Positions 1,487 to 64,000 of a stretch of DNA of 64,000 nt are shown here, in pieces. The position numbers and the translations under genes were made by a program. A model generated the notes under the pieces. That model saw nothing but the letters and a program-made list of their open reading frames with translations, was not told the DNA's origin and searched no databases. The stretch covers positions 23,560,001 to 23,624,000 of the forward strand of contig OZ024754.1 in assembly GCA_964016885.1 (NCBI GenBank), read 5' to 3'. This DNA comes from Eledone cirrhosa. Lineage: Eukaryota. Within the stretch, counting starts at the first letter, position 1; each line of letters starts with the position of its first letter.

Positions 1487-4400
1487 ATATATAGTAATAA
1501 TAATAAAGTTGAAGACTAAAATCCAAAGAGGGCTCGATAAGGATAAATATATATCAAATATATAAGAACCGTAGGCCAAATATTTATTAATTTCAATTCA
1601 ATTACCTCTGTATTTAACTTACTTTATTCTTAACTCTGAAGCCGACAATCATTCAGTTTCCTAGTTAGAATTTTAGTCTACAACTTCGGTTATACCATTT
1701 ACGTGGTTTTGTCTTTGCGTGCAATTGTTCACAGCGCTCCACATAATGACGTATTATCTTCGTTTTTTCGGTTCATTGCCAGAGAACGTCTCAATGAACC
1801 ACCTAATAAAATATTATCGAGCCCTCTTTGGATTTTAGTCTTCAAATTTATTATTATTACTATTTGGCTCCCTAGGTTGAGCACTCTATTGACTTATATT
1901 CATCATGCAGAAACAACATCTGAATATTTCTACAAAGAACATACCAGTACGAAGCAGGAAAACATACCTAAAACTCATGATACAGAAAACAGACGCGTTC
2001 ATTAAAAGGTTGCGTTGGCGTGCTTTTTATTTCGATAATCAGGGAAAAGCAGACAACAAACAGGATAAATTTGGGTTTAAAACCTATAATAACCATCCGA
2101 GTAACCCAGCATGCTACCCTTCGAAAATGATGTCTTGGAACTCATACGGAGCATCAAATTTCGGAACAGGAGCAATTCCTTCCATCAGGACCTGAAGAAT
2201 AGAATTCGTTCTATTAAGCATTCTAATGCCGTGCATGTCCACTCCGACAAAACTGGCAATCTATATCAAGTAGAGCGCAGTACTTACCACCAACTGCTAC
2301 ATAATGTTGTAACTAAGGATTACCGTAAAACTAATCGGAACGTCATTAATAAAATCAATGATGCTGGGTTTAAAATCACCTCTGATCTCAGCATCCTGGA
2401 CCGGACTGAACCTCTGGACCCTATTTCTCTCCACGTTACCCTGAAGGATCACAAATCCAATTTCCCGAACAACCCCTCTCTTCGGCTTTTAACCCTACGA
2501 AGTCCGATTTAGGTAGACTTAGTAAAAGGATTTTAGATAGAATTATACCTGAAATTAGAAGCTTGGCCTTTCTTGCACTGTGGAACAATTCTTTCGCGGT
2601 AATTGATTGGTTCAACGGCATATGCAACAAGGAACATTGCCGTTTTATCCACTTCGACATCAATAATTACTACTCCTCCATCACTTTACCACTTCTCCTT
2701 AGAGCTATCAATTTCGCTAAAACACTCACAGTGGTTAAGGATTTCGAAGTTGATGTCATCCTCAATACCCGTAAGTCGGTCATTAATTTCGACGACTCTA
2801 TTTGGATTAAAACATCTAATAGTAACCCATTCGACGTGAGTATGGGCGCCAGCGATTCAGCGGAGGTTACTGATCTTATCGACCTTTTCCTTCTTTTCTC
2901 TATCAAGGAAGAATTCCCCAACGTGGGCGGTGGTTTGTACCGTGATGATGGTCTTTGATCATGACAAAGTGTGGCCCACGTGCTTGCGACAGGTTCAGAA
3001 AAGAACTCACAGCCTTCTTTAAAGGTTTCAACCTCTCCATACAGATTAAGGCCAACCTCTCGGCCGTTAATTACCTCTACGTTACTCTCAATTTGTCGAA
3101 TGGCTTGCACTACCCGTATAGAAAGCCGAATGATACGCTTAATTACATAAGTAACCATTCTGCCAGCATAACCAAGAACCTGGTAAGAAACGTTTATTTG
3201 AAGCTTTCCCGTCTACTAACAAGCATATTTTCAACGACCATTCCACATATTACAATGAAGCTCTTGCTCGGAGTGGATTTGTCGATAAGGTAGCATATAG
3301 AGAGTACGAGAATAGACCTAGAAAAATTGATCCCGACGCATTATATGGTATAACCCACCATATAATATGGAGGTGGCCACACCATTAGCTAGGATCTTTC
3401 TCTCCCTTATTATGAAGCATTTCCCCCAGCACATAAATATAGTAAAATTTTTAATAGAAATACCATTAAAATTTCTTACTCTACGACTCCTAACCTTGTA
3501 CATAACATCACAGCTTCAAATCTAGCTAAACTATCTAGAAGTAGGAACACGTGCAACCCTGTAGTTAGTACTAACTGTAATTGTAGGAATCGGGTTGATT
3601 GCCCCCTATCCGGGAAATGCCTCTCTAGTAACATTGTCTACAAATGTAAGGTTGTAACACCCACGTCCCGTAGGGCCTACATAGGGTTAACCGCCAATAG
3701 ATTCAAGCAGCGTCTTTACATGCATACCCATTCTTTTCGTTACCCTCTAAGAAGGAATATGACGTCACTTTCAGCTTATATCTGGAGTCAACCACACCCA
3801 ATATAAGTTACACTGGGAGATCCTAGCTAGGGCTAGATCGTATAACGGAAATAAAAGACCATGTGACCTCTGCGCCGCTGAGGCCCTGGAAATACTCTAC
3901 GCCACAGACCACATCTTAAACAAAAAATCTGAGGCAATTTCGGCTTGTAAACATAAATTGCACAAAACTTTCCTGTATTACAGTCCCACGTTATACCCTA
4001 ACGGATAGTACGAACTATACGCGGATATTTTACGTCTTGATGTGGTAGCTAAGTATATGTTATGTTTATACCATTACTTATTTGTATAGGTAAGGATATA
4101 TTACCTGTATGTTTTGTGAAGGTACGTATACTTTCTCGTACATATATTGCTTGTATATGTTATGGTGCATATATTGTATATTCTGGAACACGTGCATATA
4201 GTTAGGTGTATACGCGAATTTTGCGTCTGTGTGAGTGTGCGGGTTCGTACGTATGTAGTGTGTGTGTATATGTGTACTTTGTGTTTTGGTCGACGTACGT
4301 CTGCGAACATATGTGTATTTACATGTAGGTATGTGTGTGCTCGCGTTATATACGTATTTATTTATTCATATACGTTTATTTAATTATATGTATACACGCA

Positions 4401-4735
4401 CACACACACATATATATATATATATATTTATATATATATTTTTATGTGTATTTGGTGTATACATTCGTATGCGTGCGGGTACAGGCGTTGCGGGTTTTTT
4501 TTGTGTACGTGCTTGTATTTGTATACCTATGGCAGGTGTTTTCGCGTATGCTTGTGTATGTACGTATATGGATGCGTGTATATATTTATTTAATTTCACT
4601 TACCTCTGTATTTTACTTACTTTATTCTTAACTCTGAAGCCGAGAATCATTCGGTTTCCTAGTTAGAATTATAGTCTACGACTTCAGTTATACCATTTAC
4701 GTGGTTTTGTCTTTGCGTGCAATTGTTCTCACCGA
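1487..4735 (+). mobile_element. Near full-length Penelope-like element, family A (C-terminal EN, Hydra-clade-like)
   Basis: Order is inverted tail 1487-1590, partial pLTR, 5'UTR, fragmented ORF 1905-4008, then 3'UTR/pLTR. Confidence 0.9.
1905..4008 (+). pseudogene. PLE reverse transcriptase + GIY-YIG endonuclease ORF (frameshifted)
   Basis: Motifs STKNIP..FIKRLRWRA, DKT (HSDKTGN), FDINNYYSSI, MGASDSAEV, GLYRDDGL, CNCRNRVDCPLSGKCL, IVYKC..YIGLT. Several frameshifts. Confidence 0.92.
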
Positions 4736-4774
4736 TCTATATAAATGGAAACTATATTTTTATAAAACCATATT

Positions 4775-4836
4775 TATTCTATTATATATATTTTAAGGGT
4801 ACCAAAAATTTTGGTACGCTATCATCAGATAAAATA
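4775..4836 (-). ncRNA. Type-I hammerhead ribozyme (GAAA mutated to AAAA)
   Basis: Minus strand reads tattttat CTGATGA tagcgtacca..tggtaccctt AAAA tatata TA atagaata. Confidence 0.7.
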
Positions 4837-6167
4837 CAAAATGTTTTATAAATATTTGACATGACGAAGGATAATATACCTTAACGGTTCAAGTTATCCC
4901 TGGAAAGTGAAGGGAAAAGAGGAGAAAAATCAGATATTTAAAATTATTAATATGAGTATGCAAATGATGTGTATATTAAAGGGCTGAAAAAACGTTATTT
5001 TAGACGCTATGGAAAATTTAAATATTTATGATAAGGAAGAGAAAGAGAAAAGAATAATGTTAATTTGGGGGAAAAGATTTTTGTTACCTATATTATGAGT
5101 TATAAAATTAAATGAAGAATTATGGTTGTAAGTATTTTTATCTTATTACATTAGGATAAGTTATATGTATATAAATATCTCTATATATATTAAGTTGCGT
5201 ATGCATTGATTGTTTATATAAACAAATATGAGTTACGAAGGATGTTGAAATTTTATTTTCAAGCTGTGAGATTAGAATAATTTGTGGATTCAAACATTTT
5301 CAACATTGAGAATGTTTTCAGAATATTGTTATTTTAACGAAGCTATATCAATTATCAAACTAAAATTGTTAAAGAAGGAAAAGGAACGTTAATTTAGGGA
5401 AAATATATTCAGGCATTTGTCTATATTTATATGGAGAATTATTTATCTTATTATAATAATAATATATAAATATCTCTATATATATTTTAATAATAGAATA
5501 TGTGTTTTTATTTATTAAAAGGATAGTTTGTTTATAATATGAGTTACGAGGGATGTTGATTTATAAATAAATAAAAAATAAATAAATAAATAGGTGTTTT
5601 TTCCTAATATAAGTTACTAGGATGTTGATTTTATGTAAATAAATAGGTAGTTACAATTTATAAGGTTAAATTAACGGAGTTATGTATAAAAAGTGTTTAT
5701 GTTTGAAAGAAGGAAAGATAATTCTAATTTTTTTTTTATTAATCGCTAGTGTGGGATTAATTATTTATTCTAAAGAAATATGAATATTTAAACATCATCC
5801 TGAATAGTATATATTTTACTAAAAACAGTTAATGATTATTAATCTACATTTAAAAATTAGATTTAGAGGGTGTCATTAGAAAAATAAAGCTTTAGGGGGT
5901 GTCATTAGAAAAATAAAAATTAAGAAAAATGAATTAAAGAATTTAAAAGAATTAAAATTAAAATTAAAATTAGAATTATATAGAAGTACATAATGTATAA
6001 GTACATAAATATATATAAATATCTATACATGCACACGTATATATATATTATAAGAAATTTTAAAGATATTATGATTTAGAGATATTAATATATTAAAAGT
6101 ATTAAAAATATAAAATGTTAGAGCAGATAAGATCATTTTGGAGATTAATAGGAATATTATAAGTATA

Positions 6168-6776
6168 TTATAAGTTACATATATTTCTGAATGTAGAATT
6201 TTGGCGATGTCTGCAACAACTAAATATTTCTGTTCTAAGGTTAATAGAGATTTTACAATTAATTATATATAAAAATTCTTCAATACATAATTTACAGAGT
6301 CTTGATAAGGCCGTGTTTCGGTAAGCAGGTGCTTTCGAAATCGTTTTCCAAGATAATGAATAGTCTATATTCCTGCTTTTTAAGTTCCATATAAGATGTG
6401 AGAGGGTAGTAGAATATTTTTTCTCAGATCTTCTAAAAGAACAATTGTGGTTATTCCAACGAAGTTTAAATTCTGTAGAAGTGGTACCGACATAGATATT
6501 ATCACTAATTTTAACTGTACATTTATAAACTATATTTTTATCTAAACACTTATTTTGTAAAGGGCAGTTTGATTTGATTCTACAGTTACATTTTACGGAG
6601 TTGTTGTTGCTCAGAACGGTACTATTATACTGGATATTGCTAGAAATATTATTATTAATATTATGGTTATTTTGGTTAGGGTTTAAATTTAAGTTTCTAT
6701 TATTAATTATATTTATATTTTGTGCTATGTTCATAGTAGTAGAGTAGTATAGTTTTATAGTATGTCTGTTAAACAT
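6168..6776 (-). pseudogene. PLE GIY-YIG endonuclease region
   Basis: CNCRIKSNCPLQNKCL, IVYKC..YVGTT, FKLRW..H, CKLCIEE. Confidence 0.88.
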
Positions 6777-7521
6777 TGAGTGCTATCTGTGGGTTTTAGG
6801 AAAACATTTGTCTGGTGCTTTAAAGAATAGCTTTGCTAAAAGTGTGTTAACGCTTAATGAGAATGTGGATGAGTACCAAATAATATTTCTAGTTCTGGTT
6901 CTTTTGTTTGTTTTAGAGTACAAGTTAAATTGTTTATTCTTATTATAATTAATAGTAGGGTGATTTGCCTTATTATTGTTGTCAATGTATTTAATTTTAT
7001 TCGTATACCCTGCTCTATTTAAAGCTTCATTATAATATTCAGCCTTATCCTCAAAAATATTTTTATTAGCAGAGATGCGTGAAATTCGTTGCTGGACGCT
7101 ATTGACGATAGTGTTCTTAATAGATCTAGGATGATTAGAGTTAAAACTTACGTAATTTAGATTCTCATTGATTTTATGGAATGGATAGTAGAGCCCTGTG
7201 CTAAGATTTAATGTTACGTCTAAAAAGTTAACGATTTTATAGTTATTCTCTATTTCTAACTTAAGGTTATAATTATTGAATAGATAGATTTTCTTTTCTT
7301 ATTAATTTCACAATTACTATGGTAATTTTTCAAGGGTACCAACATTTGTGGTACCCTTGAAATATATATAATAGAATAAATATGGTTTTATAAATATAGT
7401 TTCCATTTATTTAATTTCATTGAATATTTACTCCAGAAACCCGTCGAGTGCTCTGAATCAGTTGTAAACATCTATATTTGTTGGATTTCCAACAAATTAA
7501 ATATCTCTTCTACACACACAC

Positions 7522-9664
<2,143 letters not shown>

Positions 9665-10506: not shown

Positions 10507-10511
<5 letters not shown>

Positions 10512-10672
10512 AACGAGTAGGACCCCGACGGCTGAGCTCAAGCCGTTTCGACGAAACGGCTTGAGCTCAGCCGTCGGGGTCCTACTCGTTCATATTACCC
10601 ACTCTACTACCCTAAGTATTGAGTACTTTGGTGCGTTATGGTCCACCTGGTTCCTTACCACATTTCCTTCGT

Positions 10673-10973: not shown

Positions 10974-11102
10974 GTGTGTTTGTATGTATGCGTGTATGTA
11001 TGTGTGTATATGTATGTATATGTGTATATGTATGTGTATGTATGTATATATGTGTGTGTGTATATGTATATGTATGTGTATATATGTATATATATATATA
11101 TA

Positions 11103-12770
11103 TTTAAAACCCTTCTGAATGGACTCAACACTAACTTACAATTCACAATGGATTACAGCCATGAACAACTCCCTTTCCTCGACATCCTCATCAAGAAAAC
11201 TAGCAACAAAATAGAAACAGACATATACTACAAACCCACAGACTCTAAACAATATCTTCCATTCAACTCGTGCCACTCTAGACACACCAAAATGGCAATT
11301 CCTTATAACCTAGCCAGAAGGATCTGCACAATAGTTTCAGATAAATACACATGCTACGCACGACTAGAAGAATTAAAAAACACACTTTTCAGCAGAAACT
11401 ACCCACCATCCCTAATCACCAATGGATTCCAACGTGCCCTAAAACTAGACATCCAGGAACTCAGACACCCCAAACTCACGAATGAACCGCAACAAAAAAA
11501 TTCTACCATACATCTCCACACACAACCCCCTCAACAATGAGGCATTCGACACCATCCTCCAGAACATTCCTTTACTAAAAAGAGACCCAAGAATGAACAA
11601 AATCCTCCAAACACACAACATCATAAAGAGCAAAAGACAACCCAAATCCATAAAAAACATCCTCACACAAGCCAAAATCCAACAAACCCTCACAATGAAC
11701 CCTACAGTAACAAAATGCGGAAGGCCCAACTGTAGCATATGCATAAATCTAATAGAAGGTTCAACATTCCATTCTAAACAAGGACAGCGTTTCACAGTTA
11801 AACACAACTTTACATGTGCATCTGGAAACCTTATCTATGTTTTGACCTGCTCAGGTTGTCAAGTGCACTACATAGGACAGACAAAAAACAGCCTCCTTCA
11901 ACGTATGACCGTGCATAAATCGCAAATTAAAATACAGGAATACAGAAAGATTGCATTTAGTGAACATATCGCCAATTGTGCTCACAACCAACATCCAAAC
12001 TTTAAAATTTCCGCCATTTACAAATTCATAGACAACGCTACTTTCATCCAACGTACCAATAAGGAAACATATTTCATTAATAAATTCCAACCCCTACTTA
12101 ATGCTCTAAAAATCGGATCAATCTAAAACTGCAACAAACAATCAAACATTTACAAGAGTTACCTCCCTCACACCCTACCTAATCCTTTTTCTTAAATAAA
12201 TTAAATATCACCCAGCAAGAATTGCTTCCCCCTGCATATTAACTCTCTAAAAAGGGAAATCATATCAAACCTCAGTCCACCATTTGCCTCCATCATGGAA
12301 TCATGGATCAACTAAGCACTCTTGATATATTAACACATTTTGATCTGCTTAACTTCAATAACTATGCTTTTAAATAACATTATTTTTCTTCCACATTGAC
12401 TTTTTATGCTCTACATTATGCACGTTTGTTTTTCCTTTTTCTTTTTTCTTTTCACTTCATAAACCTTGTTTGTAAATAACATTATTTTTTTTGCACCTTC
12501 TATTTAACATGTGCGACACCACACTAATACATTTCACTATCATTTGATAATGCATAAAAATGCTGAAACCGGTAATAGACAATAATTAAATAGATAAATA
12601 GATAAATAAATGCCATTGTTAAATAATACATAAATCAACTAATACCTTAACACTTCACACAAAGTAAAACATTTCGTTTTAATCATTTTCTAACCCAGAA
12701 AAAAGAGAGAGAGAAACAAAAAAGGAAAAAAAAATATTTTTCTTCCTAATAATCGTCTCTTTCTCCCTGT

Positions 12771-13018: not shown

Positions 13019-13023
<5 letters not shown>

Positions 13024-13218
13024 AACCAGTAAGACCCCGACAGCTGAGCTCAAGCCGTTTCGACGGCTAATTCTGGACTCATGTCCAGAATTAGCCGTCG
13101 AAACGGCTTGAGCTCAGCTGTCGGGGTCTTACTGGTTCCTATTACCCACTCTACTACCTCAAGTATTGAGTACTTTGGTGCGTTATGGTCCACCTGGTTC
13201 CTTACCACATTTCCTTCG

Positions 13219-13222
<4 letters not shown>
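13019..13222 (+). mobile_element. Palindromic family E element (60-bp perfect arms)
   Basis: Arms 13019-13078/13083-13142, loop tcat, flanked by (TA)n. Confidence 0.8.
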
Positions 13223-15966: not shown

Positions 15967-16064
<98 letters not shown>

Positions 16065-16172
16065 GTATGTTTGTATATATATATATGTGTGTGTATATAT
16101 ATATATACATATGTCCAAGGCTCTAAAACCATCAACACCATAAACACACCTGGCATATCTAAGAACTGACTA

Positions 16173-16228
16173 ACTGCCTGATGAGGTCATAGCCATTCAA
16201 TAGCTATCATCGAAATATATATAGCAGT
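16173..16228 (+). ncRNA. Type-I hammerhead ribozyme
   Basis: actgc CTGATGA ..atagc/gctat.. GAAA tatata TA gcagt, followed by AATAAA. Confidence 0.82.
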
Positions 16229-16286
16229 AAATAAAGGATTATGAGTTCATGCAATTGACTTATGTATCGTCACTATATATATATAT

Positions 16287-16482
16287 ATAGGAACGAGTAG
16301 GACCCCGACGGCTAAGCTCAAGCCGTTTCGACGGCTAATTCTGTCCAGAATTAGCCGTCGAAACGGCTTGAGCTCAGCCGTCGGGGTCCTACTCGTTCCT
16401 ATTACCCACTCTACTACCCTAAGTATTGAGTACTTTGGTGCGTTATGGTCCATCTGGTTCCGTACCACATTTCCTTCGTTAT
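16287..16482 (+). mobile_element. Palindromic family E element
   Basis: Arms 16287-16343/16346-16402, flanked by (TA)n. Confidence 0.8.
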
Positions 16483-16579
16483 ATATATATATATTTGTGT
16501 ATGTGTATTTATGTATTTATGTATATGTGTATATATGTGTATATGTGTAGATGTGTTTGTATATGTTTGTATATGTGTA

Positions 16580-16643
<64 letters not shown>

Positions 16644-16889
16644 AATGTGTCTGTTGACACCTGAAATATAGCTTAAGAGAAACTTAAAAATAAGGAGTGG
16701 CTCCCCAATCTGAACTTGTTTATAGAATTCTTTCTGCCTTTGTCACTCTAAATATAAATTATAGCCTTAAAGAATTTGTTTTTAATGAATTCCCTTTTCT
16801 TTCAACCAATGAGCTCCACCCATCCCACTCCCCACCCTCTCTTACCACCTGAAAAGATATAAATACCACAACATTTATTTTGGACCGCC

Positions 16890-16940
16890 AGATTCCTGAT
16901 GATTTCTAAAGAATGAAACAGTTCTAGTCCTGTAGAATCT
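16890..16940 (+). ncRNA. Type-I hammerhead ribozyme in a PLE pLTR (~16790-16955)
   Basis: agattc CTGATGA t-ttct aa agaa-t GAAA cag ttctagtc ctg TA gaatct. Confidence 0.8.
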
Positions 16941-16972
16941 CATCTATATTAAAACTAAATATATATATATAT

Positions 16973-17510
16973 GTAAATATCTTTAAGTCGTTTGGAAGCC
17001 TCGACAATGCAAATGGGTAAATCTCCGGGTAACAAGGTCCGGTGGTGGAGAGAGAGATGTAAGTGGGTGTACGTTGAGATGCGTAGTGTGTATAAGATGT
17101 GTGAGATGTGTAGAATGAAGGGAAGAGTATAAAGGATAAAATAAAAATAACAACACAAGAGAGAGTTACCTTGGGAGCGATTTAATAGTCCCTATATATT
17201 TCGGATTCGCATCCATCAACTGGGGTTTTTTCCGGGGTGGGGGAAAAGGTTGTCTGACCCCAGTTGATGGATGTGAATCCGAAATATATAGGGACTATTA
17301 AATCTCTCCCAAGGTAACTCTCTCTTGTGTTGTTATTTTTATTTTATCCTTTATACTCTTCCCTTCATTCTACACATCTCACACATCTTATACACACCAC
17401 GCATCTCAACGTACACCCACTTACATCTCTCTCTCCACCACCGGACCTTGTTACCCGGAGATTTACCCATTTGCATTGTCGAGGCTTCCAAACGACTTAA
17501 AGATATTTAC
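16973..17510. repeat. ~250-bp inverted repeat of family D
   Basis: Arms 16973-17225 and 17258-17510. The track shows near-identical ORF translations on opposite strands. Confidence 0.9.
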
Positions 17511-22586: not shown

Positions 22587-23805
22587 GAGTCAATGGCCAT
22601 CCAAAATCACCGGGAGAGATGACCTCTTAGCCTTTGTCAAGGCAGAATTTTAGGAGAAGGAAAACTCTGATATAACACCTGCAACCCTGATGGTATCCAA
22701 TGATCTTGACTTGTTCTTCTTTTTGGTAAATATCATCTTGGTTAAGAGAGTGGGAATGGCTTTGTGCAGTGCCTTTGCTCACTATAAAAGCTTCACGGCA
22801 CAGGCATTGCTTTGTATCTGGAGATCTCTCTGCACTTGTCGTCACATGGTACCATGGGCCCAGCACTATGTGTCAATAATTGTCACAAGTGCAGTGTTTG
22901 TACCAGAGTTTTCAAGTCGCTGGCTGGATTAAAAAGTCACACTCGTTCAGCGCATCGGTAGGGGTTCTCCTACATGGATATAAAGTAGTGGCCGTACTCG
23001 AAAACGAGTTGGCAGCCACCATGTATGTATATATATATATATATACATACACATACATATATATGTATCTCTTTCTCACTCTCTCTGTATGTACGTATAT
23101 ATATATATAATTATATATTTATATACTCTTTTACTTGGTACAGCCCTCCAGTTGAGGCCATGCTGGGGCACCATCTTTAATATATATATATATATATATA
23201 TGGTGGCTGCCAACTCGTTTTCGAGTACGGCCACTACTTTATATCCATGTAGGAGAACCCCTACCAATGCGCTGAACGAGTGTGACTTTTTAGTCCAGCC
23301 AGCGACTTGAAAACTCTGGTACAAACACTACACTTGTGACAATTATTGACACATAGTGCTGGGCCCATGGTACCATGTGACGACAAGTGCAGAGAGATCT
23401 CCAGATACAAAGCAATGCCTGTGCCGTGAAGCTTTTATAGTGAGCAAAGGCACTGCACAAAGCCAGTCCCACTCTCTTAACCAAGATGATATTTACCAAA
23501 AAGAAGAACAAGTCAACATCATTGGATACCATCAGAGTTGCAGGTGTTATATCAGAGTTTTCCTTCTCCTAGAATTCTGCCTTGACAAAGGCTAAGGGGT
23601 CATCTCTCCCGGTGATTTTGGATGGCCATTGACTCTTAAGAGCTCCTTTGCCCTTTGACAGGTTTTGTTTTTAGTCCTGCAGGATGTCCAAAGTCACCCT
23701 CCTCACCAAGAAACCTTGGTGGGGTTGCCAGTTTAGTCGCCAACGACCCGACCATGAGACAGGTTGTACTGGGATACATGTTACCAGTAGCACCAACTAG
23801 TGACC
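22587..23805. repeat. ~435-bp inverted pair of family G (22587-23021 plus; 23201-23805 minus, with extra RTE-like 5' leader)
   Basis: Mirror ORFs in the track. A third copy lies at 54466-54892. Confidence 0.9.
23728..23805 (-). ncRNA. Candidate HDV-like ribozyme at the 5' end of the family G element
   Basis: P2 CCAGT/ACTGG, CC-containing L3, GG, P4 GTCG-TTGG-CGAC, J4/2 C-TAA. P1 is imperfect. Confidence 0.4.
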
Positions 23806-31369: not shown

Positions 31370-33167
31370 TATATAGTAATAATAATAAATTTGAAGACTA
31401 AAATCCAAAGAGGGCTCGAAAAGGACCGTAGAGCAAATATAGTAAATTTTTTATAGAAATACCATTAAAATTTCTTACTCTACGACTCCTAACCTTGTAC
31501 ATAACATCACAGCTTCAAATTTAGCTAAATTACCTAGCCGTAGGAACACGTGCAACCCTGTAGCTAGTACTAACTGTAATTGTAGGAATCGAATTTGACT
31601 GCCCCCTATCCGGGAAATGTCTCTCTAGTAACATTGTCTACAAATGTAAAGTTGAAACACCCACGTCCTGTAGGGCCTACATAGGGTTAACTGCCAATAT
31701 AATTCAAGCAGCGTCTTTACATGCATACCCATTCTTTTCTTAACCCTTTAAGAAGGAATATGACGTCACTTTCAGCTTATATCTGGAGTCTAAAAGACAA
31801 CCACACCCAATAGCTAAGGCTAGATCGTATAACGGAAATAAAAGACCATGTGACATCTCAAACAAAAAAATCTGAGGCAATTTCGGCTTAAATTGCACAA
31901 AACTTTCCTGTATTTCAGCCCCACATTATACCCTAACGGATAGTACGAACTATACGCGGATATTTAACGTCTTGATGTGGTAGTTAAGTATATGTTATGT
32001 TTATACCATTACTTATTTGTATAGGTAAGTATATATAACCTGTATGTTTTGTGAAGGTACGTATACTTTCTCGTACGTATATTTGCTTGTATATGTTATA
32101 GGCGTATATATTATATTATATATACTGGTACATGTGCATATGGTTATGTGTGTACGTGAGTTCTGCGTCTGTGTGTCTATGGGGGTTTGTACGTATGTAG
32201 GGTGTGTGTGTATGTGTACTTTGTGTTTTGGTTGACGTACGTTTAGCGTACATATGTGTATGTGTGTGCGCGCGTTATATACGTATTTATGTGTGTATAT
32301 TTATATACGTTTATATAATTATATGTATACACACACACACAAATATATATATATCTTATATGTATTTTTATGTGTTTGGTGTATACGTTCGTATGTGTGC
32401 GGGTACAGGCGTTGCGTGGGTTCTGTATGTGCGTGCGTGTTTTTTGTGTTCGTGCTTGATTTTGCATACCCATGGCGGGTGTTTTCGCGTATGCTGTGTA
32501 GTATATGGATGCGTGCATGTATATATTTAATTTTTGTTGATTTCAATTACCTCTGTAAATTATTTACATTTTTCTTAACTCTGAAGCCGAGAATCATTCG
32601 GTTTCCTAAATAGGATTTTAGTCTACGACTTCAGTTATACCATAAACCTTGTTTTGTCTTTGCGTGTAATTGTTCTTAGCACTCCACATAATGACGTATT
32701 ATCTTCGTTTTTCCGTTCATTTCCAGAGAACGTCTCCACGAACCACCCAATAGAATATTAGTCTTCGACTTCATTTATACCATAAACGTGGTTTTGTCTT
32801 TGCGTGTAATTGTTTTCACCGCTCCAAATAATTGTTTCTACTTTAGGCATAAGGCCAGCAATTACCCAGTGCATTACTGGTACTTTATTTTATCGACCCC
32901 GTAAGGATGAAATGCAAAGTCAACCTCGGCGGGATTTGAACTCAGATCGTAAAGGGACTTAACTATGGTGGAAAGCATGGCCCTTCGTTTTTTTCCGTTC
33001 TTTGCCAGGGAACGTTTCCACGAACCAAAGTATCGTCTTCCTATCTTCCTTCGGTTGCAACGTTTTTCGAAATATTTACTTCTGCGTTCACAGATTGATT
33101 TTTTTAGTTTCAGAAGATCCCGTTAAGGGTGAAAGCAGCGATTCTTTGCTTAAACTTTAATCTCTTA

Positions 33168-37023: not shown

Positions 37024-37942
37024 ATATATATATATATATATATATCTCCCTCGTTCTCTCTGTTTCTCCTACTTTCTTTCGCCCCCTCTGTCATGTCAGT
37101 TAACTCTTCCTCACACTTCCACTCACTCACTCACTGTTTCTCCTCTTCTCACTTCACCCCGTTCGCGATGAATACATTTTCTCTCTTTCTCACATTTGGA
37201 TTCATCTCGAAAGGTCTTTTTTCTAAGCGCTCATATATTCACCTAGCTTATGCTAACAGAATAACTATGTAGCTTGTTCCCTTCCTCTCTACGGTTAGCT
37301 CTCCTCTTGTTGTTTACTTGTCTCACTCGCTTTACGCGTTTTAATTGTCCTAATAACTTAATTTAGTTATTATTGCACCGACGTGAGGTATATGATTTTT
37401 AATGCAATGAAATATCTATGATCGTCGGCAAATCACTGATGAGGGACTCATTTTATTACATGTTATCCATGTGCAACCTGCAGTATTCTTCTCCCCATTT
37501 TTTCACATATATATATATATATGTGTGTGTGTGTTGGTTTGACAGATTTGAGGGCGACTGGCCGAGGTGAAAGCAGCTAGTTGGTCAGTCGTCCTCTCTG
37601 TCTCTAATTTTTCGGACCCATGGTTTTTTACATATTCATTTGTTATATTTCGAATACCTGATGATATCACCGGATTCATATGGAACCCGGTCATTGAAAT
37701 GATCTTAGTATAATAAACCGTTCAAGGATTTACACCAATCCAGCCTCCTGTTATTTTATTTATATATGTTTCCCTATTCCAACGGCTTAATTTAAATATA
37801 CTGTTTTTAAACCTTTCCAACACTAATTTGCATAATAAACCAACAATAAATATAATAACTCCACTATCAAGGAGATTCCAACCAGAATGGTTGCATTTTT
37901 TAAGGGTATGTCAATATTTATTTATAAAACTAACCTATATTA

Positions 37943-38008
37943 TATTTTATCTGATGAAAGCGCACCATAGTTTGCTCTGGTGGCCCTTGAAATATGTATA
38001 ATGAAATA
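37943..38008 (+). ncRNA. Type-I hammerhead ribozyme (family C-related pLTR, to ~38140)
   Basis: tattttat CTGATGA aag.gcacca..tggtg.ccctt GAAA tatgta TA atgaaata. Downstream sequence matches 7370-7510. Confidence 0.8.
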
Positions 38009-38139
38009 AATATGGTTTTATAAATATAGTTTCAATTTGTTAATATATTGTATATTTACTCCAATAATTTGTTGAGTACTTTATATCAGTTATAAAAATA
38101 TTTTGCTTGTTGTATCCCAACAAATTAAGTATAACCTCT

Positions 38140-38228
<89 letters not shown>

Positions 38229-40122: not shown

Positions 40123-40669
40123 ATATTATAATTGAATATAAAAGAAAAACGAACACAGATATATACATATATGTGTTCAAATCGTAAGGGATCAGATTCG
40201 CTAAGGTGAAAAGAATACTAACTATAGACAATAGGGTTTGCCTGTCTCAATTTAAGAAAAAATCAAGAAAATAAATACAAACCTGACCTGCTATCTTTAG
40301 TGGCGTGAGTTTGTGAGACACGCTAAGTTCAGATACCATGTGCGTTATTATATATACGCACACTATTCAGTTTTTTAATATACATAGAAGTGTCCAGGAT
40401 ACTAATTCTTCATCCACTGATGAGCAAGAATTGGTATTCCTATTCACAATTAATTTTGCGAAACAGCATTACCAAAGCTGTCTGGGTGATTGGTAGTTAG
40501 CACAATTCCAGTTTGTATTTATTTTCTTGATTTATTCTTAAATTGAGACAAGCAAACCCTATTGTCTATAGTTAGTATTCTTTTCATCTTAGCGAATCTG
40601 ATCCCTTACGATTTGAACACATATGTATATATCTGTGTTCGTTTTTCTTTTATATTTAATTATAATATA
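40123..40669. mobile_element. PLE-type pLTR with ~155-bp inverted arms (40123-40282/40511-40669) around a hammerhead
   Basis: Arms are reverse complements; the HHR lies in the spacer. Confidence 0.8.
40410..40489 (+). ncRNA. Canonical type-I hammerhead ribozyme (GUC site at 40480-40482)
   Basis: tcatcca CTGATGA gcaagaattg..caatt..ttttgc GAAA cagc attaccaaa gctg TC tgggtga. Confidence 0.9.
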
Positions 40670-41066: not shown

Positions 41067-42071
41067 TCGCGAGTTTTTAACAGGCACTCACAAATAAACG
41101 TTTCTCATTGGAGGTGCTATTACCAATGTTCTTATCCGCGCAGCGCCGGGATACACTGCTAGTGTGTCTGTATGGCTGAATGCCTGAACTTAATAGCTAA
41201 ATAAAAGACACCCACACCCAACAAGGGAGATAACCAAATGGTAAAATATAGAGTTACTTCCCTTCAAATTATATTTTCTATCTTGAAATTATATTTTCTA
41301 CTCTTAAAAGGTTCTTAATATATAGAAAAACATTTTTTTGGAATTGTATTTACTAGTATAGAGAGAGAGGAAGAGGAATTAGAAAGTGAGGGGACAGACG
41401 GAGTAGTATAGAGAGAGAGGAAGAAGCAGAAGAATTAGGAAGTAGAGTGACAAACTGAGATGGAGGAAGAGGTAGAGGTGGAAGGATTCCTCGATCAGTT
41501 TTGATTCGTAGACTTCATGTCGTCGATTTACAGTGTAGGTAGTTAAAGAGAAATCAATTGTTTATAGTGGGAGGGATTATAGAGAGAGAGAGAGGGGGGG
41601 GGGGGATAGAGAGATAAATATATATATATATATATAAAATAAAAATAAAAATAAAGAAGTATAACAATATATATATGTGTCGTTTGGTTGCTAGGATGCA
41701 TCCATAGGCAGTATGCCGGTTGAGCACTCTATACTCCTACGGAGCAGAGTATGATCAAATGGAAAACGAAGAATCAGGGATGCATCGGAACTCAATTTAT
41801 TACGTACTAGCAAATGACCCCCGTCCATTGGACGGTGACAATTCTTGGTAGGGCTGCAATGTTAATGGTCAATTTCCGTGTTGTATGTTTAACTTGGAGG
41901 ATAATTTTACCTGATCAACTCTATCAATAAAAAAAAAATGAGACGGTATTCAAAAAGAGCAAGTTTTATTTACAGATGTGTCATTAAAATGTGAACATAG
42001 AGAAATGTATCGTTAGCCGTGTCGGTTGAACAATGTGTAATTTTTTTTATTAATAACCGAAATACAAACAG

Positions 42072-43440
42072 TAAATGAGACTGGATGTCAAACCATTTTG
42101 GATTGCATGTAAAGGTGATAAAAAGATCAGGACGGCCACAATGGTGGACATAGGTCAGAATATCCTGCATTTTTTCATGCATGTAACGGGGGTCTCCAGT
42201 GTATGATGATGGGAGAATGACAGAAAGCCCAACATCCGAAGCATTAGCCTGATCATTTCGGTTTACTTCGTCGCGTAGATTGCCGTATTCTTCTGAACGC
42301 AGTTTCTTTTGATGATGTCTTATCCATTGGAAGCGTTCAGTGTCAATCTTAGCACATATGTCTACACAGTATTGATTGAGGAGCATCCGTGTTCTATGCA
42401 GAATGTTGACGTCGTTTTTGCGAAACATAAGTCTAAATGCATAAAATTCCATTTGTGAAATGGTTTTCCCTGGTGTAAGATGCATTAAACTTACAGGATT
42501 ACACTTTTTCAAATCAATGCGGTAGCCATCGTCGGCAAAGGGGAACAGCAATGGATACTGGAGAGCATCATATGCGGGATGAAGTTCATTTATTTTTTGA
42601 AGATGCGAGTCCTGCCATTCAATAACAATATCACGGTTTGAAGCGCTCTGATTAGGACGTGTTATAATCACCGCAACTTCATCGGTTTGGGGTCTATTAA
42701 AGCAACCCCGATGCTGCCCTGGTGGAGCGCGGTCATTTCGAATGACAACCTTGTATTGATTGTTGTTAGCATCTCTACGTTGTAAAGCAGTTTTGAAAAT
42801 GGTGATGTACGGGTTTATGGAATGAAGCATATATTGAAGGGGCTGCAGAAGAGAAGGTGTCGTTCCTTTAGCAACTGAAGCCCTTCGTGCAATTTCTTCA
42901 GGTCCGTTGCCCATAAAGTAGATCTGGAGAAAACTGTGTTCTTTGCCATCTTGTGGAATAAGTGATCCTATTTGATGGTAAATTTGGCTTTGCACTTTAA
43001 ATGTGGGCATATAATTCCCATCTTTTTATTGTTGTATGACCAAAGCTTGTCATTTGGAAAGCCGAATTGTAGGCTCTTATATTGCTGAAAAAGTGTTTAG
43101 AATCAGGGTGGTCTCCAAGCAGCAGAGAATTCAAAGGTTCGGCACCGACTTGTAAATAAGGCAATGTAACCGTTCCATTGGAGCAACATATACCGGTAGA
43201 TTCAGCTGGCCACCTCATTGCATTACAATGGACGCAAACAGTTGACATACTACCAATGATGATATGTGGATTGGATGCGTAGTCCTCTTGGGGGTTGTAT
43301 TGAAAACCTTTCTTAGACCAGTAACAGGAAGAATCCCTCGGAAAGACATAAGTACGCATTTTCCGTTGAGAATCAGCCGCAAGCCTTGTTGCCTTTGGTC
43401 AACAGTCTCTAAAGCACGGCTATTGGAAGTAGAAGCAGCA
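42072..43440 (-). pseudogene. Internal duplicate of the 5' part of Helitron RepHel
   Basis: Near-identical to ~46372-47740, with the same frameshifts. Confidence 0.92.
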
Positions 43441-43449
43441 TTGGATAAA

Positions 43450-46400
43450 CTATTGGAGGGCTGCCTTGTAAACCACATTTTTTGTAAATCTTCCGGGAGC
43501 GTAGTAAAAGAGACTTGCTGAGTTTCCAACTCTTGAACATCCCACATACAGTTGTCCGTGTGAAAAACATGGGGTACTGAGGTCCAGCTCAACCACTTTT
43601 AGTGATTGCCCCTGGGCTTTGTTAATGGTGATTGCAAAACTTAACCGAATGGGGAATTGAACTCTTTTCATCGGAAAGACACAGTCAGTTGGAATAAGTG
43701 GAACTCGGGAAATAAAAACAGAGTCACCAGCGCCTTTTCCAGTAATGATTGTAGCCTCGAGAACGTCATCCAACATTTGCGTTATAACCAAGCGTGTGCC
43801 ATTGCAAAGCCGAGGAGGTTCCAAATTTCTTAAGAGTATGATGGGACATCCAAGTCTTAGGCAGAGTTTATGCGGTGGCATTCCCGATGGTTCTTGTGAG
43901 TTTAAAAACTCTGTTGGGTAAAACGTTACTTGCGTTGGATCCGTAATCGAATCAATCGAAGCATAACATCGCTCTTGGGAAGGAAGTTGATAAAGCAGAC
44001 ATGTGTTAATAGCTTGGACGGTGGCATTCGTAGGGGCTAAGATAACCCTTTCACACATCCATTGATGACTGACGTAATTTGTTGAGAGGTCGGGGTAAAC
44101 TTTTGTGCAAAGGTCCCCAGTGCTGGAGACGTAGTTGCCGATGGTACTTATGTCAACGAAACCGTTTACGTCGATTAGTAAGTTCCCATTACCAACATCC
44201 AATAACTTTGAAGCAAAATAATTGTTACCGTCTTGTTGGTGGAGAATCGATCGCATGTTGATGGTTAACATTCTCGACTGGACGAAGCGCCAAAAATGAG
44301 AATGTTTAATGCAAGCGTCTATTTCATCACCTGGTTGACCTTTTGGGATGATGGGAAGAGTTTGACGAAAGTCCCCAGCAAGAAGCAGAACGACGCCACC
44401 GAAAGGTTTAGAGTTGGAGCGCAGGTCTTGTAGCGTTGCATTGATTGCATGAAGTGCATTCTTGTGAGACATTGTCGCCTCATCCCAGACAATCATTTTG
44501 CATTTTCGAAAGACAGCAGCCTCATCAGAATTCTTCTTTACATTAGTGGTAGGATTTTCAACATGACCAATGTTAAGGGGAAGCTTAAATGTTGAATGGA
44601 CTGTTCTGCCGCCGTCTAGCAGTGTTGCTGCTATTCCTGAAGATTCCATTGCAATGGCAATCTGTCCATGTTGGCGAACTTTGGCAAGAAGGAGGTTTAG
44701 TAGAAATGTCTTTCCTGTGCCACCTGGCGCATCAAGGAAGAGGATGCCACCGTTTATGTCTTCAAGCATGGTCAAAACAAAAGTATAGACATCAGCTTGT
44801 TCAGAATTCAAAAGTTTTTCTCTTTTTTGAATCCAGGACAGAAGCCTGGCAGCATTGTAGCATGTCTCCCTTAGTATGTGGCGGTTACAAACAGCCTCAT
44901 TTTCTCTTTTAGGGGATTCCATATAGTAGTTCTTCAAGGGATGGCCGGTCATTTCCAAAAGTATATCTTCTAGAAATATGAGACCGCAATTGTACATTTC
45001 ATGTGTAAATTGTAAATTCATGTCTGTGGACGCAAAGCGAGATTGCATTAGGATGTCCAAGCACATGCTGTCACGATATTTATCCCAGAAAGACTGTGGA
45101 TTCCCAAGACTGCAGTATACCAGCATAACGGCGAAAAGCTTACGAAGAGCAATTGGTGACTGCAACATTGATGCTTCATGGAGGGCGTGGTCATAGTGGT
45201 CATCGTTGTCGAGAAGACCTAATTTGGAGCAGGCCTCTTTAAATGTTGACCAAATATGGCCATTGACGGTACGGAGGTCTTCAAAGGAAGTCAGACCTTT
45301 GATAACGTGCAATAGAAGACGAAGGTGAAAACATTCTGAATTGAGCGGGTGAACTGTGTACACTCTTGAGAGGGCATCAGACTCACGCATCAAAGCATCC
45401 CTTTGTGAAATGCGTCCTCGCTTTCTTCTTTGCCAACAGCGGGAAGATTTATTCCACGTGTAGAATGTAGGCAACTCCGCATAAAGAAGTGTTCTGGCAA
45501 AAGAGTCTGAAGTACAAAGTTCAAAGAACCCTGTAAGGGTCGTTCTTCGAGGTTGTCTTGCACAGTCAAGCATATTTTCTTGGTTAAAATACACCCGTTG
45601 ACCATTCTCCAAATGAACGCTGAGATGAATAACTGCAGGTTCATGGATCGGAAAACCGAATATGCGCCAAAATCCCTCGTTAGAAGAGATGTAACGTCCA
45701 GTTTGAAAACACGTGACTTCATCTGTGACAGCATCAGGGTTATCGCTTTTAGCCAACTCAATAACTGCTCGATCAGCTCCCTTATGGACATACTTGCAGA
45801 TGTATTGGATTGCTTTGACGGAGTTGCAGAATTCAACGTTAATATGGGCTGAAAACATTTTACATAGCACCTTGTTATGTGGTACAACCCATCGGTTGTC
45901 AATAGTGAAATCTTGACCACCAAGCATTGTTATATTTGCCATATGTCCACCCTCATGCGGTGCTCGGCGACGGTATGAAGGGTAGCCATCATCACCAGTT
46001 TTGGTTTCATTGATGAGTTTACGTGGGTAACGCTTTGTACATCTCCTATTGTCCATACATGCAGATTTTGGATTTAGGTGGCCATGTATCATGTTGGCTT
46101 TTATGATTTGAAATAGCGAAGGGTCTTCTTGGGGATTTAGCAATTCAGCACTGATAATGGAATCAACATCAGTTGACATAAGTTTCTTTTGAAGCCAAAG
46201 GAGAATACGGGCATGTGGGAGTCCTCTCTTCTGCCATTCTACTGTGTACATGAAGCACCTTACTGGTCCAAAAAGTTGTCCGTATTTTAAAACATCCATC
46301 ATTTTTATAAGCTTCATGTGAAACACTCTGGATGTGATATCATGCCTGTGTGAAGGATTTTGGCCATGAAGTAAATGAGACTGGATGTCAAACCATTTTG

Positions 46401-47992
46401 GATTGCATGTAAAGGTGATACAAAAATCAGGACGGCCACAATGGCGGACATAGGTCAGAGCATCCTGCATTTTTTCATGCATGTAACGGGGGTCTCCAGT
46501 GTATGATGATGGGAGAATGACAGAAAGCCCAACATCCGAAGCATTAGCCTGATCATTTCGGTTTACTTCGTCACGTAGATTGCCGTATTCTTCTGAACGC
46601 AGTTCCTTTTGATGATGTCTTATCCATTGGAGGCATTCAGTGTCAATCTTAGCAAATATGTCTACACAGTATTGATTGAGGAGCATCCGTGTTCTATGCA
46701 GAATGTTGACGTCGTTTTTGCGAAACATAAGTCTAAATGCATAAAATTCCATTTGTGAAATGGTTTTCCCTGGTGTAAGATGCATTAAACTTACAGGATT
46801 ACCCTTTTGCAAATCAATGCGGTAGCCATCGTCGCCAAAGGGGAACAGCAATGGATACTGGAGAGCATCATATGCGGGATGAAGTTCATTTATTTTTTGA
46901 AGATGCGAGTCCTGCCATTCAATAACAATATCACGGTTTGAAGCGCTCTGATTAGGACGTGTTATAATCACCGCAACTTCATCGGTTTGGGGTCTATTAA
47001 AGCAACCCTGATGCTGCCCTGGTGGAGCGCGGTCATTTCGAATGACAACCTTGTATTGATTGTTGTTAGCATCTCTACGTTGTAAAGCAGTTTTGAAAAT
47101 GGTAATGTACGGGTTTATGGAATGAAGCATATATTGAAGGGGCTGCAGAAGAGAAGGTGTCGTTCCTTTAGCAACTGAAGCCCTTCGTGCAATTTCTTCA
47201 GGTCCGTTGCCCATAAAGTAGATCTGGAGAAAACTGTGTTCTTTGCCATCTTGTGGAATAAGTGATCCTATTTGATGGTAAATTTGGCTTTGCACTTTAA
47301 ATGTGGGCATATAATTCCCATCTTTTTATTGTTGTATGACCAAAGCTTGTCATTTGGAAAGTCGAATTGTAGGCTCTTATATTTCTGAAAAAGTGTTTAG
47401 AATCAGGGTGGTCTCCAAGCAGCAGAGAATTCAAAGGTTCGGCACCGACTTGTAAATAAGGCAATGTAACCGTTCCATTGGAGCAACATATACCGGTAGA
47501 TTCAGCTGGCCACCTCATTGCATTACAATGGACGCAAACAGTTGACATACTACCAATGATGATATGTGGATTGGATGCGTAGTCCTCTTGGGGGTTGTAT
47601 TGAAAACCTTTCTTAGACCAGTAACAGGAAGAATCCCTCGGAAAGACATAAGTACGCATTTTCCGTTGAGAATCAGCCGCAAGCCTTGTTGCCCTTTGGT
47701 CAACAGTCTCTAAAGCACGGCTATTGGAATTAGAGCAGCATTGCGAGCACGCCGGAGTTCTGCTTGTTCAGCTTTCTGTAATGCTCTGATGTTCAAAGTA
47801 GAGGCAGCATTGTGAGCACGCCGGAGTTCTGCTTGTTCAGTTGTTTGTAATGCTCTGGCGATCGAGGTAGAAGCAGCATTGCGAGCACGCCGTAGCACAC
47901 ATTGTTCTTCTGTTTCGCTTGCGCGCAAAGAACGCAAAGCAAAAGCATTTTTTTGTTTTTTTTCCAATGTTACTCTTTCTTTTTCGAGGCAT
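43450..47992 (-). pseudogene. Helitron Rep/PIF1-helicase (1286-aa ORF 43450-47310 plus frameshifted N-terminus from MPRKRK at 47992)
   Basis: ITFTCNPKW, EWQKRGLPHAR, YICKYVHKG, Walker A DAPGGTGKT, IVWDEA, GDFRQTLP, RLCNGTRL, QFPIRLSFAITINKAQGQ, FSHGQLYVGCSRV. Confidence 0.95.
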
Positions 47993-49060: not shown

Positions 49061-49942
49061 AAAAGGAACGCTCTCTCTCTTTAATGGCCGTCATGGAATT
49101 TGTTAGTGCAAAAGTCTATCTATATATATAATTCCCGTTCTGTGTGTGTGTGTAAAAGAGTTTCACTTGGAAAATATTCCATCCATCTCTGTCAAATTAA
49201 ACACAGCCAAAATAGGCTGAAAATCGAAGTTTGTGACTTCGAAATTAATCATTATGAAATAATTTTTTCTTTATGTTACAAACCGTAGCCTATTTTGGCT
49301 ATGTGTTTAATTTGACAGAGATGGATGGAATATTTTCCAAGTGAAACTCTTTTACACACACACACAGAACGGGAATTATATATATAGATTACAATTGTTT
49401 CTCCGGTGAACAGCTCAAGGTGCGATCTGTTTGTGGATCGAACCTGACTCTGCATTCACAAGTTCCTCAGATACGTCTAGTGATTTCGATACAAATTCTC
49501 TTTCTGCAGGGCTCCGACCATTCAAGTCTATATCATCTGCCTTCATCCTGTTTGTGCGGCCCTTAGATTGGTCGATGGTTCATGACGTCATCATAGTTCT
49601 TGACCACTGAAATCTGCCCACTGGCCATCTCCGTTCAGGTGTGAGCTGTCACATAAAATTACTGTTCTGTGTAGTATGATCTTTATTATTTCGCAGGCCA
49701 ATCCTTTGCTTGGCAGCTTCCCCCATACATAAACATCCATAATCACATGTGCTCACATCTATATAGAGGTATTATGTATATATATATATAGTAATAATAA
49801 TAAATTTGAAGACTAAAATCCAAAGAGGGCTCGATAAGGATAAATATATATCAAATATATTTATCGTAGAGCAAATATTTATTAAAATAACAGATTAAAT
49901 ATATTTATCGTAGAGCAAATATTTATTAAAATAACAGATTAA

Positions 49943-52900: not shown

Positions 52901-53201
52901 TGCTATTGTTCTCCACGCTCCACATATGACGTATTATCTTCGTTTTTTCGTTCATTTCCAGAGAACGTCTCTATGCACCACCTAAGAGTACATTAGTCTA
53001 CGACCTCTTTTATACCATAAACGTGGTTCTGTCTTTGCGCGTAATTGTTTTTCACCGCTCCTATTAATGACGTATTATTCGTTTTTTTTCCCGTTCTTCG
53101 CCAGCGAACGTTTCCACGAACCAAAGTATCGTCTTCCTGTCTTCCTCCGGTTGCAACGTTTTTTGAAATATCCAGTTCTGCGTTTACAGATTGACTTTGT
53201 T

Positions 53202-53252
53202 AGTTTCAGAAGATCCCGTTAAGGGTGAAAGCAGCAATTCTTTGCTTAAACT
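53202..53252 (+). ncRNA. Family A hammerhead variant (CAGAAGA core)
   Basis: Same motif as 33106-33156. Confidence 0.7.
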
Positions 53253-53268
53253 TTAATCTGTTATTTTA

Positions 53269-53327
<59 letters not shown>

Positions 53328-53328
<1 letters not shown>

Positions 53329-53711
53329 GGAATGTAACATCCAGTTACTGTAGGTTCACCAGAGTGAGCACTCAGTGTGTAGTTTCCAGTAAGTATAGAG
53401 GTGTAGAACTAAGCAGAGTGTAAATATAATAATAAAAAGAATGTTTCACTATTGATCAGCTCAAGGTTCGATCTGTATCTATAAAGCCCGGCTCTGGAAT
53501 AAAAAAATTGTTGGACCTTTGCTGACCATTCCGATGAACTTTTGATTCTAGAGTCGGGCTAGATCGATAGAGATCGATAGAGATCAATAGTGAAACATCC
53601 TTTTTATTATTATATTTACACTCTGCTTAGTTCTTGACCTCTATACTTACTGGAAACTACACATCGAGTGCTCACTCTGGTGAACATACAGTAACTGGAT
53701 GTTACATTCCC
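53328..53711. repeat. ~130-bp inverted repeat (53328-53457/53582-53711)
   Basis: Arms are reverse complements. The spacer shares cagctcaaggt.cgatctg with 49411-49429. Confidence 0.8.
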
Positions 53712-57625: not shown

Positions 57626-57852
57626 TAACGAAGGAAATGTGGTAATGAACCAGTTGGACCCTAATGAACCAGAGTACTCGATACTTTGGGTAGTAGAGTG
57701 GATAATAGGAAAAGAGTCAGGACCCCGACAGCGGAGCCCAAGCCGTTTCGACGGCTATTTCAGTCCAGAAACTACCCACTCTACTACCCTAAGTATTGAG
57801 TACTCTGGTGCGTTATGGTCCACCTGGTTCCTTACCACACTTCCTTGGTTAT
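57626..57852. mobile_element. Family E element, fold-back with deletion
   Basis: The minus copy runs to the helix-II loop (~57765), then the plus copy resumes at 57773. Confidence 0.75.

Positions 57853-60819: not shown

Positions 60820-64000
<3,181 letters not shown>

Follow-up and report, generated by a model that had tools for sequence, protein, structure and literature searches.

The inversion junction of a decayed Penelope-like element (PLE) in Eledone cirrhosa carries a perfect 14-bp hairpin built around helix II of the element's hammerhead-like ribozyme. The junction has three parts, namely an inverted arm, the hairpin and a truncated RT; a mismatch at the fourth base pair (pair 4) of helix II is lost there, and the core of the family is intact. 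Templated copying at this junction is very likely, and the route that we favour as the probable one is a snap-back of cDNA on helix II, a self-copy of 2-8 nt and a microhomology join to a second cDNA. All coordinates refer to the window, that is, the whole 64,000-nt stretch of DNA analysed (assembly GCA_964016885.1, contig OZ024754.1, positions 23,560,001 to 23,624,000).

Results

The hairpin's host is a minus-strand, 5'-truncated PLE of ~2.76 kb with an inverted arm, whose ORF is interrupted by one stop and one frameshift and in which the N-terminal half of the RT is absent (Table 1). Both its order, a PLE-type RT followed by a C-terminal GIY-YIG endonuclease, and its layout, a pseudo-LTR (pLTR) with a hammerhead motif and an adjoining inverted 5'-truncated copy, are those of EN+ PLEs, and such an arm beside the body is the usual PLE arrangement in the accessible text of PMC8557442. 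Judged by the motif definitions available from the same source (Craig et al. 2021), the element appears to share features of the Hydra clade: the CxCx5C linker is present (C-N-C-R-I-K-S-N-C in the 6168-6782 frame), the CCHH motif is absent, with a single Cys between IVY and YVG, and the right flank (7513-7681) is of the Hydra-type (TA)n kind. As described there for that clade, the RT precedes GIY-YIG, no two-Cys motif lies inside GIY-YIG, the hammerhead sits in the pLTR and the arm is inverted and 5'-truncated. The RWK and DKT motifs were removed by the truncation; RW and DKT are seen in the majority line of 15 aligned homologs. Asn-rich stretches lie between RT and endonuclease (6600-6960), as noted for Adineta PLEs, and a comparison with viral contigs gave 0 matches.

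Table 1. Features of the element and its surroundings (window coordinates)
Feature	Position	Strand	Basis or remark
Other repeat adjoining the pLTR end at 4741	4579-4744		
3' pLTR end	4741-4870	-	Aligns to the inverted arm and to a relative at 37880-38150; upstream limit approximate
Hammerhead-like core with helix II	4791-4828	-	Motif and fold; T-T at pair 1, C-C mismatch at pair 4, GAAA changed to AAAA
GIY-YIG endonuclease part with CxCx5C linker	6168-6782	-	Pfam PF01541, E=1e-4, 22.9 bits (cut-off 22.6); translation 34% identical to full-length homolog P0052
C-terminal part of Penelope-type RT, NFLDVTL onward	6783-7298	-	20, 25 and 2880 homologs in separate searches, the 2880 counted at E up to 0.001; no Pfam match
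RT remnant upstream of the frameshift, just past the missing YRDD motif	7299-7327	-	Frame L-K-N-Y-H-S-N-C-E-I-N-K-K-R-K
TTGAAA, candidate microhomology (inferred)	7328-7333	-	Complementary to the right strand and in RT frame (Leu-Lys)
Bases requiring the hairpin template	7334-7335	-	7335 diagnostic: native left strand predicts G on the minus strand, C seen
Native inner helix II left strand, 6 nt, putative fold-back primer	7336-7341	-	Identical to the 4791 copy
Helix II loop, 7 nt	7342-7348	+	Shares 5 of 7 letters with the 4791 copy
Inverted pLTR arm	7349-7512	+	Helix II right strand, GAAA, short palindromic helix III, ~100 nt extra tail relative to the 4741 end
(CA)n/(TA)n microsatellite flank	7513-7681	.	

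The ends of the element sit in another repeat and in a microsatellite, and one arm is ~100 nt longer than the other, the published tail being 30-40 nt. The end point of the inverted arm is shared with the relative at 37951-38150. The two arms end ~100 nt apart (4741 vs 7410-7512), and many reads depart from the reference at 7408-7415 and 7487-7498; two start sites, or divergence between subfamilies, could account for this offset and these departures.

At the junction, TTTCAAGGGTACCA (7328-7341) pairs perfectly with 7349-7362, which yields the predicted 14-bp stem, closed by a 7-nt loop, and the RT frame stands directly beside it at 7327, in agreement with the predicted contact between hairpin and truncated RT. 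Perfect stems of at least 14 bp arose in one of 300 composition-matched simulations of 4745-7505, and the form TTTC, at least 10 perfect pairs and GAAA was met in none of 100 simulations of the whole window. The hairpin is thus real and beyond chance, and, as laid out below, it is not the normal sequence of its family. Folded as single-stranded DNA, the full hairpin reaches -14.3 kcal/mol (z -5.4). The cDNA end is predicted to fold into the 6-bp primer hairpin within it (7336-7341/7349-7354; -3.6 kcal/mol), a weak structure that is equalled in stability by 22 of 200 shuffles.

The left strand of the ribozyme core at 4791-4828 (minus strand) reads as had been given in the original prediction. 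In this copy and its relative at 37951 the CTGATGA core is kept and pair 4 is a C-C mismatch; in the left arm of the junction hairpin a G stands at that pair and the mismatch is gone. Neither ribozyme copy of the element has a complete core, position 4794 being mutated in one and CTGATGA lacking from the junction copy. The AAAA of the 4791 copy is a private change, as the GAAA letter is found at 4794 in 786 of 861 reads (X4) and 869 of 992 (X5). It had been claimed that the left strand was replaced by a perfect complement of the right strand, GAAA included. The complementarity holds for the inverted copy but not for the 4791 copy with its AAAA, and the replacement extends to five bases, the other 9 of the 14 left-arm bases equalling the native left strand and core.

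Twelve hammerhead-like cores were found in the window and nine of them scored at pair 4, where a mispaired C is present in six and absent in three. The six lie at 4791, 16178, 18771, 37658, 37951 and 61952 (C-C four times, C-A, C-T), and their stems are divergent. Most cores in related metagenome loci are fully paired at this position. The C at pair 4 is possibly a tertiary contact special to the families in which it is mispaired. A search of the window against Rfam gave 0 gathering matches and four weak, unrelated ones; the ribozyme is called by motif and fold.

If the perfected arm were simply the consensus of its family, no copying event would have to be invoked; this explanation is ruled out by the 4791 copy, the 37951 relative and the reads, since copies and reads alike keep an intact core and the perfected arm is therefore atypical. 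The reads come from four public runs, representing three samples at most; of the sampled words, 0.27-0.29 are present in three indexed runs, which together form one sample and give no independent support. Reads with an intact left strand are common, with joints from 4805-4811 to 7349-7356 (for example 121+17 reads, 11 starts, X4). Such "opposite strand" joints resemble fold-backs, but the best interpretation is that of intact ribozymes whose sequence is divided over the reference's two arms, and they do not count as support. The loose-end line of the main read subfamily has an imperfect left strand too (5420 and 7373 reads). Mean depth in two read runs was ~31-32 over 7256-7348 vs ~1120-1250 over 4745-4837, and ~16000-17500 over 7349-7441. 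Since the first of these depths, even if it all came from 7328-7348, corresponds to under ~140 reads, the perfected arm is not common among copies, a statement about these reads and no genome-wide rate, as the libraries are reduced-representation, the loops variable and the rows best-supported ones only. Among the best-supported read rows listed, none was informative for 7328-7333 and, which is weak evidence, none among the best 40 for 4818; depth falls to near zero at 7282-7283.

As to how much was copied, the family's pair-4 mismatch is missing at the junction, and the left arm was therefore most likely copied from the right arm. Judged from the letters, 2-8 nt were newly synthesised, one base (7335) being strictly diagnostic: a 6-bp inverted primer repeat lies next to the join, and 7334-7335 extend the inverted repeat. 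The original prediction thus had a short templated copy right but overstated its size, since native helix II accounts for 6 of the 14 bases and the outer six are possibly RT-derived. The same applies to the GAAA said to be part of the copy, which the hairpin does hold, but within a TTGAAA that is in RT frame at a place where homologs often have hydrophobic-K-N.

That place was defined on 195 homologs, 82 of which span the YxDD to FLDV motif, 78 of these with 35-37 residues between. A hydrophobic-(K/R/E/H/D)-N triplet occupies positions 3-5 after YxDDxx in 18 of the 78, none having it at starts 1, 2, 4 or 5; the exact hydrophobic-K-N is found there in six. Pro is absent from position 2 in all 41 homologs of the commonest length. 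From the hydrophobic-X-N register and this lack of Pro, RT-like coding probably starts at 7333, which would supply the microhomology that the snap-back model needs. The remnant lies 98 nt from IVNF vs 102 expected for the commonest spacing, so that a small deletion is needed, and the peptide beyond L-K-N-Y (residues 7-9) fits the register poorly. TTGAAA (7328-7333) is thus plausibly RT-coded and a candidate microhomology. Searches for close protein relatives covering the RT at the join returned none, the best homologs being 44-49% identical over most of the piece.

The hairpin had also been taken as a second, unrelated instance of a mechanism seen in another family, which was left unnamed. The best candidate for that first family, with copies at 10511, 13019, 16290 and 57628, indeed has no BLAST similarity to the hairpin's element, and two of its four copies share the outward form, being the only other matches to the perfected-hairpin pattern in the window (13058-13103 and 16326-16363). 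It offers, on the other hand, no intact ribozyme and no RT junction: no CTGANGA core of this family lies within the window, and its arms, 42-60 bp long, run to the element end and meet no RT. The 13019 copy has two identical arms, which nevertheless depart at 3-4 of 42 sites from the other two comparable copies, and each palindrome of the family was therefore likely built from one template. Its palindrome centre may be either native helix II or a head-to-head join, and a first step shared with the hairpin's element is plausible. The four copies are palindromic insertions in (TA)n (10511-10672, 13019-13219, 16290-16479 and 57628-57849) with GAAAC, a 6-bp helix III and GTC; the arms within a copy share private changes, and the short-arm end is common to three of the four and the long-arm end to all four.

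Elsewhere, no such hairpin was found at four other junctions of the window (7928, 52398, 17258 and 40282; best stems 4-6 bp) or at seven junctions in 80 related metagenome loci (best stems 3-5 bp), a set from which L076, as the uninverted reference, and L072, which lies where two families meet, were left out and in which the join of L064 is roughly placed. A helix-II fold-back is therefore not the required route. The 80 loci hold 45 ribozyme-like cores and six TTTC...GAAA stems of 5-7 inner bp, four of them seen with 20-nt flanks only. The other two, in L022 and L072, look like unrelated long palindromes. L017 has the only compared junction in helix II, a complex join with no perfected hairpin; at L017:446-582 lies a multi-piece head-to-head join of a related pLTR, with the strand switch inside the helix II left strand.

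At 41970-47767 the window has large ORFs (1291 aa) that carry motifs of a replication initiator and a Pif1-like helicase, with a 1.4-kb internal duplication, and we take them to be Helitron-like. Further Hydra-like PLE copies lie at 7681-9303, 50701-53276, 2250-4185 and 31435-32169, two of them with plain inversion junctions (7928 and 52398), and a truncated PLE of another type at 11100-12126, with a C-x4-C-xx-C linker and two Cys inside GIY-YIG, is Neptune-like by published definitions. More head-to-head or palindromic repeats stand in microsatellites at 16973-17510, 22587-23635, 49118-49389, 53328-53711, 40173-40620 and 61570-62729.

Discussion

A fold-back copy made before template switching had been proposed for this junction, and the best fit is indeed a brief stretch of templated copying with a switch after it, although a template jump gives the same letters. 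In the scenario that we favour, both target strands would be nicked and each would prime reverse transcription from the element's 3' end, giving a long cDNA primed from the left flank (4741 to ~7327-7333) and a short one primed from the right flank (7512 to 7336). Two converging cDNAs may be supposed for the hairpin's family because a purified PLE protein was found to nick the two target strands and to extend each, with two start sites (PMC11167929, in the part available). The last 6 nt of the short cDNA would then pair with its own copy of the right strand, a G-G mismatch (the mirror of the RNA's C-C) marking the outer edge of the primer. Self-templated extension, by the element RT or a host repair polymerase, would add CC and up to TTGAAA, and the 3' end would so gain sense polarity; it would finally anneal to the 3' end of the long cDNA via up to 6 nt (TTGAAA) and be extended as second strand. 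Against this model stands that it draws on one junction and on one strictly diagnostic base if TTGAAA is RT-derived. A donor RNA without the pair-4 mismatch is a possible source, as PLE ribozymes vary much within a genome according to the accessible text of PMC4209133.

Exactly the same letters would result, through the same 6-nt match, if the long cDNA, its end complementary to the RT's TTGAAA, had jumped by microhomology to the ribozyme's UUGAAA on an RNA, with no fold-back, copied ~8 nt of the right strand and then annealed to the short cDNA via the self-complementary helix II. "Extra template" joints of this kind are a recognised class of R2 junctions in the available part of PMC11371274, and multi-piece junctions exist at 57628 and in L017. 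The ribozyme RNA would, however, already be paired with both cDNAs, so that a third copy would presumably be needed, and the intramolecular partner is closer, only 7 nt away; we regard the jump as unlikely. Pairing in trans would likewise give an identical product: the 3' end of the short cDNA would pair with the right strand as copied in the long cDNA (4791-4804), be extended by 2-8 nt, released and re-annealed at the long cDNA's 3' end. Although "trans" SD-MMEJ junctions exist (PMC5728401, as far as accessible), the pairing site would lie 2.5 kb from the final join and two strand exchanges would be required, which makes this course very improbable.

The weight put on a single strictly diagnostic base also invites the reading that an ordinary inversion join was helped by luck, the short cDNA having ended in the left strand and met the RT at a chance (T)GAAA, with the pair-4 base stemming from a variant donor, from mutation afterwards or from correction of the near-palindrome in a later replication. 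Ribozyme sequences are variable in what is accessible of PMC4209133, three of the nine scored cores have no pair-4 mismatch, and the copy is old, its two arms differing by 3 substitutions in 76 nt. Such a join nevertheless needs a chance GAAA (0.009) or TGAAA (0.0025) by base composition and one specific transversion, which we estimate at ~0.01 from the differences between the arms, for a joint chance of ~1e-4 or less; both close relatives (4791 and 37951) moreover retain the mismatch, and we find this account quite improbable. Self-priming on antisense RNA, in which synthesis starts from the folded-back end of an antisense transcript that terminates in helix II, has been proposed for the head-to-head junction palindromes of Adineta vaga (PMC3846280, accessible portion). 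Purified PLE protein, by contrast, primes from nicked DNA on sense RNA in the accessible text of PMC11167929, and a switch into mid-RT after 2-8 nt is unexplained unless a jump is added; for the present junction, this reading is highly improbable.

The snap-back that we prefer has relatives in several known systems. Snap-back synthesis-dependent microhomology-mediated end joining (SD-MMEJ) is reportedly the subject of a study by Khodaverdian et al. 2017. As in the snap-back SD-MMEJ of PMC5728401, described at nuclease breaks in flies in the part of that paper available, the junction combines a 6-bp inverted primer repeat, short synthesis, a candidate new microhomology to the other end and a longer inverted repeat. 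In R2, too, the cDNA 3' end self-primes before the 5' junction forms (PMC11371274, Zhang et al. 2024, and PMC11331408, both in part); there, however, one strand is primed and the join is to rDNA, whereas here the join would be to a second cDNA, with a ribozyme stem as primer. Palindromes at inverted PLE junctions and their reading as self-priming have been published for Adineta vaga, whose EN-bearing PLEs also have palindromes at inverted-pLTR junctions (PMC3846280; Arkhipova et al. 2013). That account, in its accessible text, invokes antisense RNA, predates the report of PLE hammerheads and makes no tie to the ribozyme helix; in contrast to it, helix II forms the stem here, and the direction of copying can be read from a conserved mismatch. 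PLE hammerheads, including opposite-strand pairs, have already been reported (PMC4209133, accessible text). The terms "hairpin" and "palindrom" are absent from the main text of PMC8557442, none of three short sequence terms was found in the portion available of its supplement, and the available part of bioRxiv 10.64898/2026.07.22.740005 contains nothing on junctions. A PLE junction palindrome tied to helix II was not found in the openly accessible literature, which excludes the subscription PLE reviews of 2005 and 2006. Junction palindromes in PLEs, R2 cDNA snap-back and snap-back end joining have each been described in print.

How PLEs make their inverted ends is still an open question in the accessible text of PMC8557442. 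Coming from one dead copy, this one junction is a further example for ideas already in print and establishes no pathway; it shows that PLE joints are, at least sometimes, made with the ribozyme stem as template. The conserved mismatch of helix II also provides a cheap marker, in that a mismatch-free left arm flags a templated event and can be counted in assembled genomes. Speculatively, and we hold this to be doubtful, helix II of PLE hammerheads could act, in unrelated PLE clades alike, as an inherent switch for DNA self-priming that flips first- to second-strand synthesis. If so, its outcomes would be a full palindrome, as in the four-copy family, or, as at the present junction, a strand switch after a short perfected hairpin, and the ribozyme would gain a non-catalytic job, consistent with the finding, in the accessible part of PMC11167929, that cleavage is dispensable for PLE insertion in vitro.
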